A stretch of DNA of 64,000 nt, from positions 1-64,000 of the IMG/VR virus record IMGVR_UViG_3300032020_001000. One strand, given 5' to 3'. The stretch comes from a virus. Shown piece after piece: positions 1,979 to 62,578 of the stretch (the first letter of the stretch is position 1; every line of letters starts with the position of its first letter). Below the pieces are notes generated by a model. It worked only from the letters and a program-made list of their open reading frames with translations, made no database searches and had not been told where the DNA came from. The position numbers were made by a program, and so were the translations under genes.

Positions 1979-2210
1979 CAAGGAGCATGAGCTTCTGCTG
2001 CGGCCGGGGCCCGTATGTGATCATCGTGAACTGCGAGCCGGGCGGGGACACGATCAGCGTGGCCCGGGCGCATCCGCCATTCTGCGTGCAGCTCGCCGTC
2101 AGCGATGTGTGCATTGGGCTCGACATCCGGCGGGGGGACGAACCGCCCGAGACGCAGATCCTCGACCGCGCCCTCAATTCCGAGCAACCATGATATGGGA
2201 GGTTGATCAG

Positions 2211-2792
2211 ATGAAGCGCATCATCATCGCAGTTGATGCAGGACATGGCGGCACCGATCCGGGCGCAGTGGGGAACGGCCTGCAGGAGGCTCAGGTAGCG
2301 GCCGAGCTGGCGAATCAGCGTCTCGCAAGCTTCGCACGGCTGGCGGGGCATCGCGTGGAGTTGACTCGCCCCACGGGGACGGGTGTATCCCTGACCGCGC
2401 GGGCACAGAGGGCGGTGGAGCTGCGGGCCAACCTCTTTGTTAGCGTGCACATAAATGCGGCCTCTTCCCTGGCGCGTGGTTTCCAGGTCTGGCACCATGG
2501 CGGCGATGGCCGCAGCAAGCTGGTCGCACACCGCATGCACCGCATGGTGGCCGACGCGCTGCCGCAGTGGGCAGGGAACGCATGGCGCATCAGCGCCGAC
2601 ACGGAGCGTTATCGCAGCGGCTTTGCGGTGCTGCGTGGCACATGGCAGCGGATGCCAGCGCTGCTGCTCGAGGTCGGATTTCTGAGCAATGAGGCCGATG
2701 CCAATCTGCTGCGTGACCCCATACTGAAGCAGGCCACGATGCTCGAGGTGATGGCAGCCATCGCGGCTTCCCTGGCGCAGGACGAAGTGTAG
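2211..2792 (+). CDS. N-acetylmuramoyl-L-alanine amidase (Amidase_3), endolysin
   Basis: VDAGHGGTDPGA, QEA, FVSVHINA and LLEVGFLSN motifs. Confidence 0.93.
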   Translation: MKRIIIAVDAGHGGTDPGAVGNGLQEAQVAAELANQRLASFARLAGHRVELTRPTGTGVSLTARAQRAVELRANLFVSVHINAASSLARGFQVWHHGGDGRSKLVAHRMHRMVADALPQWAGNAWRISADTERYRSGFAVLRGTWQRMPALLLEVGFLSNEADANLLRDPILKQATMLEVMAAIAASLAQDEV

Positions 2793-2816
2793 GACATTTT
2801 CGATAGGCATATATCC

Positions 2817-3299
2817 ATGATGAGGTTGGCACACGAGATGGGAGTGGCACCCGAGTTCGCGCGCGAGCTCGAGGCATGGGTGGACCGGCTACTCGGCGCA
2901 GAGTGGGAGGTGGTGCTTGCCGCTGACGATACCTATGGCGACCGGGCCGGAGTGAACGTGTGTCTCCGCAACCGGGAGGCGACCGTGACTGTATGCCCCA
3001 CAGCGGATGTGCGACCCCACGCGACCGCCTGCCACGAGGTGGTGCATATACTGCTGCGACGCATGCATGAGGTGGCCTGGCGGATCATAGACCAACTACC
3101 CGAGGCGCTGCGGCAGTTCGCGCGGGACACATGGGTGGAGGCGCACGAGGAAGTGACGGAGGATATCGCCCGGGCATTCATCAGGGCCTATGCGGCCGCG
3201 GGCGAGGAAGGAGATGCAGGGAATGAAACGAAATCTGCTAGTCGGTTTGGTGGCCGGAATGGCCATGACACTCCTGATCGCGCTGCCGGTAGCCGCTGA
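2817..3299 (+). CDS. HExxH metallopeptidase-like protein
   Basis: ACHEVVH motif with downstream HEEVTE. Confidence 0.55.
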   Translation: MMRLAHEMGVAPEFARELEAWVDRLLGAEWEVVLAADDTYGDRAGVNVCLRNREATVTVCPTADVRPHATACHEVVHILLRRMHEVAWRIIDQLPEALRQFARDTWVEAHEEVTEDIARAFIRAYAAAGEEGDAGNETKSASRFGGRNGHDTPDRAAGSR

Positions 3300-3630
3300 G
3301 CCATTTGTCGAACAGCTCACCGGCTTCTTGGGGCAACCATCGGGCGCATCGGTGATGTTTCTGCATGGGCGTGACGCGACAGGTACGGGCCCGGCATTCA
3401 ACTTCGGTCTAGATGCGCAGGAGAAGACGCATCTGGACCTGGGCCTGATCACGAGCAACCGCGGCAACCAGCGCATGGTGCCGGGGCTGTCTGTCGACCT
3501 CGGCAGGAACCCATCGGTGCAGCCCTACGTCGGGATCGCGCTGACCCCGAGCGAATATGGCGGGACGCGGCTCGGCCCTCTGCAGGTAGATGGTATCTGC
3601 TTCTATGGGGGTCTGCGGCGGAGCTGGTAA
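3223..3630 (+). CDS. Secreted or envelope protein
   Basis: Signal peptide MKRNLLVGLVAG...PVAA; beta-strand-like body. Confidence 0.6.
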   Translation: MKRNLLVGLVAGMAMTLLIALPVAAEPFVEQLTGFLGQPSGASVMFLHGRDATGTGPAFNFGLDAQEKTHLDLGLITSNRGNQRMVPGLSVDLGRNPSVQPYVGIALTPSEYGGTRLGPLQVDGICFYGGLRRSW

Positions 3631-3668
3631 GGTTCAATTGCCCCAATGCGGGGCAGCAAGGAGGCACC

Positions 3669-3914
3669 ATGGATTTCGGGAAGGTTCTGAAGTGGCTGTC
3701 GGTCGGCCTGCGAATCGGCGCGATCCTCGAGGCGCTCAAGGGGGTGGACGCGAGAGCGCCTGGCACGACCAGCGAGGCGTACGCGGCGGCGGCTCCGGTC
3801 GCGCTTGCCTCGACGAGCGCGGAGTTCATGATGCGACTTGACGCCTGGGAGCAGGAGAACTTCGAGCGCATTATGCGAACCAGTCTGTTCTGGTTGGACT
3901 GGAAAACGCAGTAG
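3669..3914 (+). CDS. Hypothetical protein
   Basis: AGGAGG RBS. Confidence 0.6.
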   Translation: MDFGKVLKWLSVGLRIGAILEALKGVDARAPGTTSEAYAAAAPVALASTSAEFMMRLDAWEQENFERIMRTSLFWLDWKTQ

Positions 3915-56124: not shown

Positions 56125-56345
56125 TGGGGGCTCAGCGCCACTGGGATAATCTGGTGGCGGCCGTCTATGCCTATGGCCAGCAGGTAGGCGGCTTCGGATC
56201 GGTGACCGTGCGCATCGGTTTTCACGAGGGCCTGCCCGTGCAACTGGATGTCCTGAATCGCGAGGAGCGGTGCCGGCTGGATGGCGGCGGCATCGTGTTG
56301 ACACCGAAGCCCGGCCCGGTTACACTGCCTACAGATAACCAGTAG
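56124..56345 (+). CDS. Small DUF2292-like protein
   Basis: FGSVTVRIGFHEGLPVQLDVLNREERCRL resembles the FGSV.I.IHDG.VVQIE pattern; TGATG coupling to terL. Confidence 0.45.
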   Translation: MGAQRHWDNLVAAVYAYGQQVGGFGSVTVRIGFHEGLPVQLDVLNREERCRLDGGGIVLTPKPGPVTLPTDNQ

Positions 56346-58756: not shown

Positions 58757-61700
58757 ATGCAGGCGGGCGCGATGCCTGCACTGATCGGGCGTCGCAAGGT
58801 TGATGATTTCCGCCGCGCGTTCGGCGGGCCGCTGGATTCCCTGGCTGCCGTCTATCGCCGGGGAATGGCGGATGCGATGGAAGTCCTCAGCAATGCCGCC
58901 TCTACCCTCGCGCAGCGCCGCTATGCCCTATCCCACCTGCGTCAATACAACGTTGTGCTGAGCAATCTCCGGGATGAGACCGCGGCCTGGGCGCAACTCC
59001 ACATGCCGGCCTCATACCGCCTCGGCATGGAGTTCGCGGATGATGGCATCCGCAGCGTGCGTCGCGCCGGCATCAACCTCGGAAAGCCGCAGTATGAAGT
59101 CTTCAGCCAGGTGCATCGGCAGGCAGCCGAAAGTGCCACTACGGAGTTGCTGCGGACGACCGATTTCGCAATCGCGCAGATCGGCCGGCGGGTGGATGAT
59201 GTGTTCCGCCGGGTCGGCATGGAGGAGGTCACGAAGGGCATCGTCGAGGGGGCGACGCGGCTGGATGTCAGCAAGGCGATCAAGGAGCGATTGATTGATG
59301 AGGGCCGGCCATTCTTCCTGGACCGCGCCGGCCGCAAGTGGGACCTCGACCGCTACAGCGAGATGGTCGCCCGCACCACGACGCGCGAGGCGGCGACGAC
59401 GGGGACGATCAACCGGCTGAGCGAACACAATATCTGGCTGGCGCAGGTGTCGGCGCACAACGCGGGAGATTTCTGTCTTTACTATGAGAATGTCATCGTC
59501 TTCATCGGCGACGATCCGAATCCTACACCCTACCCACCGATCAGCGCCATCGAGGGCGGCCCGCCTTTCCACCCGCAGTGCCTCATTCGCGGCAGCCGGG
59601 TCCTGACATCGAGCGGGTGGCGGGCAATCGAGTGCATTCGGCGCGGCGACCTGGTGATGACACACCGCGGCCGTTGGCGACGAGTGACGGCGATGATGCA
59701 GCGTGAGTACGAAGGGGAACTCGTGCAACTCGGCGCGCTCCGTGTGACACCTGAGCACCCAGTATTGACTCAACACGGATGGGTGACTGCGGGCAGTTTA
59801 TCCGGTGCCGAGAAGGTGGCGATCCTGCAAGCAAGCGACGACCGCATCGGCGGTCAATTCGGGCCGCTTGCGGTAGCGAATCCGAACGACCTCATAGCCC
59901 AAGGCGCGAACAGCGGCATCGCGGGATTCACGCTTGGCAACGCGTTTCGGCTCGCGCCAGTGGTCGATCTCGATGGTCATATTGCTGCCGTGGCCAGGGA
60001 AGAAGAAGTCTGCGATGTAGCGCCCGATGGGATGCTGGAAAGAATATTCGATGCCGGCTGCGGTGAGCGCGGCACAGACCGCGGATTCGTGGGGATGCGG
60101 TTTGCGGCGATAGGAGCCAGCTCGCGTGATCGACATTTTGCGCGCGAGAGTTTCGTCGCGGCTGGGGTTACCGGGCCCGCGCATGCGACTCCGATTGCGA
60201 GTGAACGCGGGACCGTTAGGGTCAGTGATGCTGTCTCGCTTCGCCCCGCCCCTGGGGCGGGTCTGGATGCCGTAGCGGGGGAACCAGATACGCAGCAACT
60301 GTGTGGCATCGCGGCCGATCTCTACTCCCAGCTGCTTCAGCGTGGTGCCTTCGGCATATCGGCGGCGAAGAAACTGCTTCAGCGGTTCGCCCACTGCTTG
60401 TCCGAGGCGCTTTTCAGTGATGCGGCGCCGAAGCTCCTCCCGGCAACCGAAGGAGCAAGTCGGGCTGCCCAAAACCCGGTCGCGGCGGGAGACGCTCAGA
60501 GTGAAGGGCTGGTGACAAACAGGACAGCTAGTCATCGCGACCCCATTATACCATTGCCCAGACGTGCTTGCAACTACAGCGGCGTTGTCTACAACCTCTC
60601 GGTCGCGGAGGACGAGAGTTATATCGCCGAAAGGATCGTCGTCCACAACTGTGTCCATGTCCTCACCCCCTTCGTCGAGCGCCTGGCAACTGAGGCGGAG
60701 AAGCAGGCGGGCAAGATCGATGCCGACCTGCTCAACAAGTCGCCGGCGGAACTGCAGCGCCGGTTCCGCGCAGAGTTCCCCGAGCGCGCCCGGGCGGAGG
60801 GGAAACGGCTGCGGGAGCAGGCGGCGCGGGGGCGTGGGGCGATCATGCGGCGCGCAGAGAGAAGGGCACTAGCGGGGCCACCACCGATGAAGGTGCCGGC
60901 CCTCCGCGAGATGCCGGTTGGCACCGTGCTGCGGCGCACCTACAAAGGCCGCGAGTATGTCGCCGAGGTACTGCACGACGGCAGGATCATGTGTAATGGC
61001 CAAGTTTATCGGTCGCTCACCGAACTCGCGAAGAATATCACGGGCCAAACCGCGATCAGCGGACCGCGGTTCTTCGGAGTGGCCGAGCGCGGGAAGCGGG
61101 GAGTGGCCATCGCCCCCACCCCCACCCGAGCAGCCCCCGGCGAGGTTGCCGCACCACGTCCGCCGCGCCTGCCGCCGCGCGACGAGTTGCAGATGGCGAG
61201 GTACATCGCCGATGACCTTGCAACGTTGATGGACACGAAGGTAGGATGGAATGGCAAGCTCACGATAGAAAAGATACCCGACGCTGTCGGGCTGAAGCAG
61301 TGGAATTGTTCTATTGTCCTGGATCAGGCGACCCGCGAGCGTCTAACGGAACTTATGCAGTTGAATGCAGAGTCCTGGGCGCATAAGTATGAATGGCACC
61401 GGCGGCAGATAGCGGACGCATTCCAAACGCTCGTGCACGAAATGACGCATGCTGCTGGGCCACAGGGATCATGCACCCAATTCGATTTTGTAACGGCCGC
61501 GCAGCGGTGGATCGAGGAGGCGGTGACAAGCGCAGCGTCTGAGCGCATGGCGCCAGTGCTGTTCAAGCAGATCATGGGGTTTGAAGCCGGGCTAGCGCCA
61601 GAGGCTTTTGGACCCGCCTCATATGCATCCTATCAGCAGGCATTGGCGAAGGCGCTGGGCGGACCGCAATATGGCCGCACGCTGAAAGAGCCAATGCGGG

Positions 61701-62578
61701 GCATCGCCACCGACCTGCAACTCGACCTAGCTTACAAGACGCCCCGCAAGGATCGACTGTTCCGAGTGGCCACGGAAATGAGCAAGGCCGTCAAGGGACA
61801 GATGACCGCTGTGGAGATTGAGGCGGCGCTGGAGGCCGGCGCCGACCAGGCAGTGAGGGCGACGTATGCGAGCGCTCGGGCAGCCGGCGCCCGCGCCCGG
61901 GCGGCAGGCAAGGCGGCTGGCGCTCGCGCGCCGGCGATAACGAGGGCTCCAGCGGCGGCGCGGGCCCTGGAAATCGGGGTAGAACCTGGTGCCGCACGTG
62001 CTGCCCCACGAGGCGCGGCCATTATCGAGAAGCCAATCAAAGCGAAGGTGGGTGCAGTGCGGATAACTGCCAGCGCGGGGATCAGAACCGAGGGGTGGGA
62101 TGGTGTAGTCGCCATCGCCCGCGGGATACCGTCTGGCCACATGAAGGGCGTCAAGGGAATTGACCTGCTGGCAGAGGTCGGGCCATTGGCGAGGGCCGGT
62201 AAGGCGTCGGGTAACGTGGTCGGCACCTGGTACATGCAGCGGATCACGATGTATGACCTCGGTACGCGCGGCGTGGCGAAGAAAACGGGCGCGCACTTCG
62301 CGCACGAAGTGGGGCATAACTTGGCGATGCGCGCCGAACTGAAGGGATTGTTGGGGCGGGACAAAGTGGCCAGGGCATGGAACGAGCTGCATGATATCTG
62401 GAAGAAAGAGGATGGCGTGAGTCCATATGCGCGGGCCTGGTGGAAGCGGGGTAAGGGCAAAGTGTCGGAGACGATAGCCGAGATGTACCGCCTGCGCATG
62501 ACGCAGCCCGCAGCCTATAGGCGGCTGCCGGAGGCCCTGCGGAAGCCCTTTGAGGTGATCTACAATGGCCTCGCCTGA
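58757..62578 (+). CDS. MuF/minor-capsid-type head protein with an intein, a DUF2924-like domain and two HExxH domains
   Basis: DRAGRKWDLDRYSEMVARTT and PPFHPQ/CVH; LVHEMTH and FAHEVGH..VSPYA..ETIAE. Confidence 0.8.
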   Translation: MQAGAMPALIGRRKVDDFRRAFGGPLDSLAAVYRRGMADAMEVLSNAASTLAQRRYALSHLRQYNVVLSNLRDETAAWAQLHMPASYRLGMEFADDGIRSVRRAGINLGKPQYEVFSQVHRQAAESATTELLRTTDFAIAQIGRRVDDVFRRVGMEEVTKGIVEGATRLDVSKAIKERLIDEGRPFFLDRAGRKWDLDRYSEMVARTTTREAATTGTINRLSEHNIWLAQVSAHNAGDFCLYYENVIVFIGDDPNPTPYPPISAIEGGPPFHPQCLIRGSRVLTSSGWRAIECIRRGDLVMTHRGRWRRVTAMMQREYEGELVQLGALRVTPEHPVLTQHGWVTAGSLSGAEKVAILQASDDRIGGQFGPLAVANPNDLIAQGANSGIAGFTLGNAFRLAPVVDLDGHIAAVAREEEVCDVAPDGMLERIFDAGCGERGTDRGFVGMRFAAIGASSRDRHFARESFVAAGVTGPAHATPIASERGTVRVSDAVSLRPAPGAGLDAVAGEPDTQQLCGIAADLYSQLLQRGAFGISAAKKLLQRFAHCLSEALFSDAAPKLLPATEGASRAAQNPVAAGDAQSEGLVTNRTASHRDPIIPLPRRACNYSGVVYNLSVAEDESYIAERIVVHNCVHVLTPFVERLATEAEKQAGKIDADLLNKSPAELQRRFRAEFPERARAEGKRLREQAARGRGAIMRRAERRALAGPPPMKVPALREMPVGTVLRRTYKGREYVAEVLHDGRIMCNGQVYRSLTELAKNITGQTAISGPRFFGVAERGKRGVAIAPTPTRAAPGEVAAPRPPRLPPRDELQMARYIADDLATLMDTKVGWNGKLTIEKIPDAVGLKQWNCSIVLDQATRERLTELMQLNAESWAHKYEWHRRQIADAFQTLVHEMTHAAGPQGSCTQFDFVTAAQRWIEEAVTSAASERMAPVLFKQIMGFEAGLAPEAFGPASYASYQQALAKALGGPQYGRTLKEPMRGIATDLQLDLAYKTPRKDRLFRVATEMSKAVKGQMTAVEIEAALEAGADQAVRATYASARAAGARARAAGKAAGARAPAITRAPAAARALEIGVEPGAARAAPRGAAIIEKPIKAKVGAVRITASAGIRTEGWDGVVAIARGIPSGHMKGVKGIDLLAEVGPLARAGKASGNVVGTWYMQRITMYDLGTRGVAKKTGAHFAHEVGHNLAMRAELKGLLGRDKVARAWNELHDIWKKEDGVSPYARAWWKRGKGKVSETIAEMYRLRMTQPAAYRRLPEALRKPFEVIYNGLA
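59798..60535 (-). CDS. DUF559/Vsr-like endonuclease encoded antisense inside the intein (245 aa)
   Basis: CPVC..CSFGC Zn finger, HTH-like segment, then HESAV..FQHPIGRYIADF..IEID..RD..LGYEVVRI. Confidence 0.8.
   Translation of the reverse strand: MTSCPVCHQPFTLSVSRRDRVLGSPTCSFGCREELRRRITEKRLGQAVGEPLKQFLRRRYAEGTTLKQLGVEIGRDATQLLRIWFPRYGIQTRPRGGAKRDSITDPNGPAFTRNRSRMRGPGNPSRDETLARKMSITRAGSYRRKPHPHESAVCAALTAAGIEYSFQHPIGRYIADFFFPGHGSNMTIEIDHWREPKRVAKRESRDAAVRALGYEVVRIRYRKRPELTADAVVACLQDRHLLGTG
60545..60573 (-). promoter_or_regulatory. Promoter of the antisense endonuclease
   Basis: Minus strand TTGCAA-17-TATAAT with TGG extension, 9 nt before the ATG. Confidence 0.75.

Follow-up and report, generated by a model that had tools for sequence, protein, structure and literature searches.

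A predicted Vsr-like nuclease gene antisense to a contiguous intein in a provirus head gene, and its relatives in other phages

Introduction

How can the middle of an intein resemble nothing when it is read with its host gene, yet stay open throughout, and encode a recognisable nuclease on the opposite strand? The question is raised by a stretch of 64,000 nucleotides (hereafter the window; positions 1 to 64,000 of IMG/VR record IMGVR_UViG_3300032020_001000, an 83.9-kb provirus record from a sediment metagenome, the element having a GC content of 66%). Here a MuF-like head gene carries an intein (59579-60649) whose central ~245 codons overlap, on the opposite strand, an open reading frame (ORF) for a DUF559/Vsr-like protein (59798-60535). 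The evidence set out below indicates that this is very probably a mobile intein of the non-canonical type with an antisense endonuclease, seated in the conserved PPxHPxC motif of the MuF/minor-capsid head gene of the provirus, and it supports the view that the central codons of this contiguous intein, taken as their reverse complement, form a genuine nuclease gene.

Such a layout has precedents. In a survey of 784 actinophage inteins, Gosselin, Arsenault and Gogarten (bioRxiv 10.1101/2025.01.02.630785) describe LAGLIDADG and VSR-like endonucleases on the antisense strand of full inteins, the VSR-like endonuclease being tied to 3R3P/EDxHD by HHpred and the sense reading being without a recognisable fold. 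The hosts include minor-capsid genes, in which the inteins all have non-canonical endonucleases, and the origin model put forward is one of inteins invaded by free-standing endonucleases. The same preprint cites antisense LAGLIDADG endonucleases in inteins from 1998 (Gorbalenya) and 2002 (Gogarten et al.). An earlier description of the window made from the letters alone (the sequence-only reading) had presented its layout as unheard of, which in view of these reports is too strong; the element in the window is one more case of a recently described kind and not a new kind.

Results

A complete intein interrupts a conserved motif of a MuF-like protein

The sense ORF that contains the intein (58757-62578, plus strand, in the head-gene region) encodes 1273 residues with no stop throughout. 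Pfam matches comprise Phage_min_cap2 (51 bits), a weak Phage_Mu_F and, in the C-terminal part, DUF2924 and a weaker RAMA. The N-extein (58757-59578, plus strand) is the portion resembling MuF and minor-capsid-2 head proteins; it carries the Phage_min_cap2 match, ends ...GGPPFHPQ and has intein-less homologues in IMG/VR. The C-extein (60650-62578, plus strand) begins CVHVLTPFVERLAT..., continues into the DUF2924/RAMA-like region and further C-terminal domains, and is joined to the N-extein in intein-less alleles.

Between the exteins lies a complete, contiguous class-1 intein of 357 residues (59579-60649, plus strand; ORF residues 275-631). At its N-terminal junction, HPQ/CLIRG (a slash marks the junction here and below), the nucleophile Cys1 directly follows the N-extein, and the Hint_2 and Vint models begin at residue 1-6. 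Block B reads VTPEHPVLT, of which T57, E59, H60 and P61 are invariant in four aligned inteins, and the C-terminal junction is VVHN/CVHV, a His-Asn pair followed by the +1 Cys at 60650. The N-terminal Hint splicing lobe (59579-59839, plus strand; intein residues 1-87) matches Vint (34.9 bits) and Hint_2 (33.1 bits), both above their cut-offs, and aligns with the inteins of Vibrio phages introduced below. The C-terminal splicing block, ...YNLSVAEDESYIAERIVVHN (60587-60649, plus strand; intein residues 337-357), matches NCBIfam intein_Cterm (TIGR01443) at 20.9 bits against a cut-off of 15.6.

Related alleles fix the position of the insert. With the N-extein as query we recovered seven IMG/VR alleles (L002-L008, 53-83% identity), and all seven lack the insert, reading ...PPFHP(R/Q)/C(V/K)... 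uninterrupted; five of the seven go on CVHVLTPFVE. Because all of them join at HP(R/Q)/C, the intein boundaries at 59579 and 60649 are exact. Across the empty site, the four closest distinct alleles match the joined exteins of the window at 48-49 of 60 bases. The sequence-only reading, which had a complete intein splitting the HPQ/C motif of a MuF protein, was thus correct on this point.

The C-extein is unusually long for a MuF protein and includes an HEMTH motif along with its DUF2924/RAMA-like matches. As the majority of intein-less relatives end ~60-70 residues past the junction (L003 and L004 extend to 624 residues), we regard the remainder as extra C-terminal cargo of the MuF protein in the window.

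The opposite strand of the intein centre encodes a DUF559/Vsr-like protein

The central ~245 sense codons had been described as unrecognisable yet open, and so they are: translated on the sense strand, they matched nothing except the window's own predicted protein, the other 23 matches being confined to the Hint ends. Pfam hidden Markov models (HMMs) placed a DUF559 domain on the antisense strand (PF04480, 28.8 bits against a cut-off of 20.6).

The antisense gene (59798-60535, minus strand; 245 codons plus stop) is in the same codon register as the intein and falls between intein residues 74 and 319. Its predicted product carries a CxxC...CxxxC zinc ribbon (60446-60526, minus strand; nuclease residues 4-30), the Cys columns of which are conserved in a 15-sequence nuclease alignment (A1), then a probable helix-turn-helix (HTH) DNA-binding module (60236-60388, minus strand; residues 50-100), and then a DUF559/Vsr-like, EDxHD-related nuclease core with D176, E187, D189 and H190 (59873-60088, minus strand; residues 150-221). 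All three modules had been named by the sequence-only reading; zinc ribbon and nuclease are borne out, and the HTH is a weak match, with HTH_58 under its cut-off (E 0.0048) and PDB HTH domains matched at E 0.003-0.5 by the profile of a 60-sequence nuclease alignment (A2) searched against PDB structures.

When the antisense protein was compared exhaustively with 1.84 billion representatives by phmmer, 312 homologues passed E<=1e-3, of which 13 also passed E<=1e-10; the best stood at 1.1e-27. Several of the alignments begin at the first residues and reach residue ~222, the homologues being 220-290 residues long (for example, 1-222 against 1-211 of protein P0031), and a start at 60535, not at the upstream in-frame ATG at 60658, fits the homologues' N-termini (MNKTCPIC, MNACPIC). 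D176 is invariant in both alignments, and the acidic pair that follows it (E187 and D189, numbered E189/D191 in A2) is nearly invariant in A1. Among known structures the A2 profile matched the DUF559 protein 3hrl (6e-22), then 3r3p (9.7e-12) and, more weakly, Vsr itself (1cw0, 0.034). 3R3P is the catalytic domain of I-Bth0305I, the prototype EDxHD homing endonuclease (Taylor et al. 2011, PMC3239194), so by sequence profile the family in the window is nearer to DUF559 than to I-Bth0305I.

The layout recurs in Vibrio phages and in metagenomic viruses

With the window nuclease as query, tblastn against 50,697 phage records found matches only in three Vibrio phages (MG592630, MG592631 and MG592457) and reached no actinophage record. 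Each match lies antisense within an annotated coding sequence (CDS) of 697-708 residues, directly past the portal gene. All three phages have a 340-residue intein at the homologous motif (PPFHWNA/C..., PPAHPNA/C...) and, on the opposite strand, an ORF of 245-246 residues with HTH and DUF559 in the same codon register as the intein. In GenBank, the nuclease site of each is annotated with nothing but a 'hint domain' or 'coil containing' protein; antisense nuclease genes of this sort go unseen because gene callers annotate only the long sense ORF.

We then surveyed IMG/VR with an alignment of four inteins as query and scanned the loci of the best 80 of 245 relatives, comparing an HMM built from 60 nucleases with all stop-to-stop ORFs. 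A nuclease-family match lay antisense to the intein in 23 of the 80 and on the same strand in 22 (20 of these within the intein-bearing ORF), and 35 had none. Of the 23 loci with an antisense match, 21 (17 distinct sequences, GC 0.43-0.69) have a sense ORF that spans the aligned nuclease region in the same register, with zero TTA, CTA and TCA codons. The overlapping, double-coded element that the sequence-only reading had proposed from a single example therefore exists as a recurrent layout, in three Vibrio phages and in 21 IMG/VR loci among the best 80 of 245. Phage_Mu_F or Phage_min_cap2 matched 9 of 17 N-exteins (16 of these 21 loci and the window), and the PPxHxN/C motif is shared.

A tree of the nuclease core was made from 31 distinct rows, duplicates being left out and the HMM match being required to cover the core (start <=200, end >=240); the loci omitted in this way include L015, L017/18, L038-L040, L042, L043, L049 and L055. 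Orientation is clustered on this tree (4 changes, against 9.5 with shuffled labels), and the window pairs with locus L014 with support of 100/99. Since the well-supported branches force no more than one change, we make no claim on the number of orientation switches.

In many relatives (L036, L051, L054, L023, L026, L019, L053 and L056) the first residue of the intein is Leu, Ile or Ala and not Cys, and these starts directly follow an HxNA motif, as in PNHWNA/LASGT. Such relatives may be class 2 or class 3 inteins, or the assigned boundary may be one residue off.

The nuclease frame is the better conserved of the two

Several comparisons bear on which of the two overlapping frames is under selection. 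In the window, GC content by sense codon position is.72/.54/.63 in the intein centre, against a third-position GC of.74-.79 in the exteins, so that the composition signal flips to the antisense frame in the centre of the intein. Compared with L014, its nearest relative, the window is identical at 121 of 237 positions in the nuclease frame (51%, score 625), and the same DNA read in the sense frame is identical at 62 of 239 (26%, score 178). Between two Vibrio phage lineages (L009 and L010) the nuclease frame is 51% identical with a score of 602, against 40% and 384 in the sense frame. Between phages 1.266.O and 1.082.O (L010 and L011), which are nearly identical, the third codon position of the nuclease takes 8 of the 10 substitutions in the overlap, whereas in the Hint lobes and exteins substitutions fall at sense position 3 (Fisher p = 6e-5, overlap versus rest of gene). 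The nuclease frame is better conserved in each comparison and at each distance tested, and by this measure of sequence conservation it is the selected frame.

Overlap in this register places a specific constraint upon the nuclease gene. The two strands are read on identical triplets, and a stop in the sense frame therefore corresponds to TTA, CTA or TCA in the antisense frame; any such codon in the nuclease gene would truncate the head protein. The nuclease gene in the window has none of the three. Its double openness is not significant alone, for reasons given in the Discussion, and so the significance of openness rests on relatives of low GC content. In the genome of Vibrio phage 1.265.O (42% GC), 50% of Leu codons are TTA or CTA and 31.5% of Ser codons are TCA, but its nuclease gene has no TTA or CTA among 17 Leu and no TCA among 18 Ser (P = 8e-9), and across 37 reference CDS of this phage the longest in-register antisense open run is 86 codons. 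Locus by locus, the probability that all three codons would be absent is as low as 4e-10, 5e-9 and 3e-6 at low GC and is uninformative (0.2-1) at high GC.

It is a separate matter why the two frames share one register. We considered the idea that synonymous changes by themselves suffice to hold an antisense frame open only when it is in register, and dropped it after a dipeptide count: per nuclease, unavoidable stops number 1-4 in one out-of-register frame and only 0-1 in the other, so the code by itself does not impose the register. Common descent is no less likely an explanation than a code constraint. Among the reference CDS of 1.265.O (L012), one out-of-register antisense frame is open for 202 codons and the others for up to 89.

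A promoter-like site precedes the nuclease gene

The sequence-only reading had given the nuclease its own promoter, on the strength of TTGCAA-17-TATAAT 9 nt before the ATG. The motif is there and is rare in the window; it stands as a motif only. With its TG extension it reads TTGCAA-17-TGgTATAAT (60545-60573, minus strand, read from 60573 to 60545), the -10 element ending 9 nt ahead of the ATG, and it is the sole site found within 59300-60900. On both strands of the 64 kb (128 kb in all) five sites score >=10/12, this one included, and a perfect TATAAT occurs only here. Two others of the five best sigma-70-like sites, on the plus strand at 56298 (TTGACA-17-TACACT) and 62932 (TTGACA-17-TATACT), lie one directly ahead of the portal gene and one directly after the MuF gene.

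Several relatives have comparable signals, the scans being made with estimated start codons except in L014, whose start was set by alignment. L014 retains the -35 element, the spacing, the TG and the -10 element (TTGCTA-17-TGcTATACT, 6 nt ahead of the ATG), and L036 and L017 likewise have a -10 element 6 nt ahead of the ATG. L009 combines TTGAAA-16-TATACT (with TG) and a GGAGG Shine-Dalgarno sequence with a terminator-like hairpin past the end of the ORF, and L053 has a promoter-like site and a Shine-Dalgarno sequence; the promoter scan gave no convincing site in L045, L061, L066 or L051. Judged from these signals, the nuclease is probably transcribed independently, as a leaderless or near-leaderless mRNA.

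Vibrio phage inteins show a signature of recent transfer, and the nuclease family occurs in other arrangements

Vibrio phages 1.266.O and 1.082.O differ at 11.7% of sites in the N-extein and 20.5% in the C-extein, and at 1.4-2.2% in the intein, which is thus ~5-15x more alike than its host gene. Because the inteins are so much more alike than the exteins, this comparison points to recent transfer of the intein between diverged alleles. Between the window and L014 the Hint lobes agree at 47 of 80 residues (N-terminal, 59%) and 20 of 26 (C-terminal, 77%), and over the final 100 residues of the N-extein identity is 37%.

The best homologue of the window nuclease, P0028, is encoded on a 5-kb metagenome contig (L013) by a free-standing gene (2013-2711, plus strand) convergent with an intein-less MuF-like gene (2714-3859, minus strand) that has the motif ...PPHPNCAHVMEPFV...; the nuclease gene lies ahead of a scaffold-like gene. 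P0028 is a candidate free-standing endonuclease targeting MuF genes, and its setting fits a window nuclease descended from, or kin to, free-standing endonucleases beside MuF genes.

The remaining two of the 23 antisense loci, L017/L018, are a split version of 34% GC (446-2764 plus, 2721-3248 minus, 2766-3275 plus and 3272-3688 plus). A portal-MuF fusion with the N-intein ends in a stop; the antisense gene encodes a zinc ribbon, an HTH and HNH (motif HNH, not DUF559); and a separate ATG-started ORF encodes the C-intein and C-extein. Although GC content is 34%, a plus-strand ORF of 169 codons that shares the register of the antisense gene has stayed open, which suggests a recent derivation from the contiguous form by two frame changes.

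Four of the 20 loci with the nuclease match inside the intein-bearing ORF were checked by Pfam (all plus strand: L084, 2162-3868; L077, 692-2824; L027, 1448-3622; L040, 1622-3685). Each has its DUF559 domain flanked by Hint-type matches on one side and the C-extein on the other; the domain is nested inside an Intein_splicing match in L084, L077 and L040, and L027 has no Intein_splicing match. By domain order, the same-strand DUF559 inteins that were checked are of the conventional in-frame arrangement. One in-frame DUF559 intein interrupts a uracil-DNA-glycosylase gene. In-frame Vsr-like intein endonucleases may be previously unreported, because the preprint (10.1101/2025.01.02.630785) gives Vsr-like enzymes otherwise only with split inteins.

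Discussion

We build our explanation on the anatomy of the element, the homology of both its parts, the constraint on the two frames, the recurrence of the layout across phages and the sign that the intein moved recently between Vibrio phages; from these we infer that the promoter is used, that the intein splices, where the nuclease cuts and that the element homes. On the sense strand, late transcription and translation would pass straight through the whole insert, and the Hint lobes (residues 1-87 and 337-357) would fold and splice out all 357 residues, including a passenger linker of ~245 residues that, as the in-register reverse complement of the nuclease gene, is without homologues on this strand. 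The opposite strand would encode the nuclease, with its zinc ribbon, HTH and DUF559/Vsr-like (EDxHD-related) core, most likely transcribed from its own sigma-70-type promoter inside the C-terminal coding region of the intein. Owing to that promoter, synthesis of the nuclease is proposed to be independent of the late head operon. Its cut presumably falls near the ...CACCCGCAG/TGTGTCCAT... junction of alleles that lack the intein, and repair by recombination would copy the intein and its nuclease gene into the cut allele.

A number of observations weigh against this explanation. The open sense frame had been held to be notable in itself, and in a window of 66% GC it is not: TTA, CTA and TCA make up 1.1% of codons, the probability of finding none in 245 codons is ~0.07-0.09, and the window's ordinary genes often have in-register antisense open runs of 200-400 codons. 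In the nuclease, the putative general-base His (H190) can be aligned with that of close relatives only across a 3-residue deletion (EID---HW against EIDGxxH(Y/W)), so activity is not assured; the same His is absent from several members of the family, with K or R there in some relatives. Word-index, sense-intein, genome-contig and viral-contig searches found no relative more than 60% identical to the element: the word-index search gave no close homologue of the antisense protein, the window nuclease (P0001) as query gave no related loci in genome contigs or viral contigs, and P0028, P0029 and the L009 nuclease as queries gave none in viral contigs. Purifying selection in the lineage of the window is consequently deduced from relatives that are 26-51% identical. 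Finally, the promoter in the window is no more than a match to a pattern, its retention in L014 adds no independent evidence since those bases also code for the conserved C-terminal portion of the intein, and the window scan found no terminator-like site after the nuclease ORF.

Taken together with indications that some Vsr-like antisense cases are vertically inherited (Gosselin et al., 10.1101/2025.01.02.630785), the open runs in ordinary genes, the displaced His and the isolation of the element would suit a decaying relic, an antisense gene kept open only through high GC content in an intein that still splices but no longer homes. We consider this unlikely. The ORF can be aligned with homologues from end to end and starts where they start, its acidic catalytic residues are intact, a near-consensus promoter conserved in L014 lies directly upstream, and L014 is twice as identical in the nuclease frame as in the sense frame (51% versus 26%).

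Free-standing phage endonucleases are known to exclude markers of related phages, and the window nuclease might resemble them in cutting the head genes of competing, superinfecting relatives rather than (or as well as) homing; alternatively, the antisense transcript might regulate expression of MuF. A promoter of its own facing the late operon could be active in a lysogen while the late genes are silent, and the closest homologue is the free-standing gene beside an intein-less MuF gene. Against this, intein and nuclease move as a block between diverged Vibrio phage alleles, as homing predicts, and exclusion and homing are not mutually exclusive; that exclusion or regulation is the function strikes us as quite improbable.

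That the sense frame is not translated through, and that the head gene is instead split ('fractured') into two halves united by trans-splicing, can hardly be credited, even given the split relative L017/L018 and the fractured genes with Vsr-like endonucleases already described (PMC2677866), because in the window the sense frame stays free of stops between 58757 and 62578, and in 21 of 23 antisense loci it is likewise open, with a strong avoidance of TTA, CTA and TCA that would be pointless unless read-through were needed.

If a mobile intein with an antisense nuclease is accepted, it can further be asked whether the orientation is an accident of insertion or an adaptation. We put forward the latter tentatively, as a possibility that we would not yet favour: a conserved and often leaderless promoter of its own would allow an early or lysogenic nuclease uncoupled from the late head operon, and homing, perhaps along with exclusion of intein-less competitors, would thereby get the right timing. 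The same tentative proposal has in-register dual coding kept across phages of 43% to 69% GC and across bacterial phyla, and the nuclease family switching only rarely between antisense, in-frame and split forms, in which case the family would be a natural series of intermediates in the evolution of intein endonucleases.

The element shares features with several known systems. It resembles the actinophage inteins (10.1101/2025.01.02.630785) in its full intein, sense read-through of the homing endonuclease slot, antisense Vsr-like ORF related to 3R3P/I-Bth0305I, minor-capsid host and proposed origin by invasion of an intein, and differs from the PhagesDB examples given there in that it belongs to a provirus of 66% GC from a sediment metagenome and its relatives are Vibrio phages and diverse IMG/VR contigs. 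Like the Synechocystis DnaX and Chloroflexus SpoVR-like inteins cited in the same preprint, it has an endonuclease ORF opposite a contiguous intein; theirs are LAGLIDADG enzymes in cellular genes, whereas the window has a DUF559/Vsr-like enzyme with zinc ribbon and HTH in a phage head gene. Dassa et al. 2009 (PMC2677866) described fractured phage genes in which a Vsr-like or GIY-YIG endonuclease gene lies on the same strand between the halves of a split intein, and the model, in the part of that paper at hand, has no antisense case. Common to those genes and the window are phage hosts, a model of invasion by free-standing endonucleases, and a Vsr-like gene that fills the endonuclease slot of an intein and brings control elements of its own (predicted ones in the window); they consist of three same-strand ORFs with a split intein, and the window has an antisense nuclease, a single open sense frame and a contiguous intein. 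I-Bth0305I (PMC3239194) likewise combines a C-terminal Vsr-like catalytic domain with a modular N-terminal DNA-binding region, but it resides in a group I intron of recA and has NUMOD-type DNA-binding motifs in place of a zinc ribbon and HTH antisense in an intein. The ShiLan-domain HNH endonuclease hidden in a phage methylase (PMC11855218) is also out of frame with a host frame that is open across it; it is encoded in the third frame of the same strand and has no splicing domains, unlike the nuclease antisense in the window's intein.

Our analysis goes beyond the 2025 preprint in several respects. The layout extends well past actinophages, into phages of Vibrio and many lineages in IMG/VR. 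All loci checked have one and the same codon register, avoidance of TTA, CTA and TCA is quantified, and the promoter-like signal is conserved; these are additions in that they are absent from the text of the preprint (10.1101/2025.01.02.630785) at hand, where the word 'promoter' does not occur and 'codon' occurs twice, both times on stop codons. In addition, a single nuclease family takes four forms around one head-gene motif: antisense to an intein, in frame with it, in a split version, and free-standing. Some 740 bp here code for two proteins on opposite strands, the one a predicted enzyme and the other a tolerated passenger that needs only to stay open and would then be spliced away, which makes for a usable system in which to study the limits on intein cargo, the constraint that dual coding places on codon choice, and how homing endonucleases join inteins.

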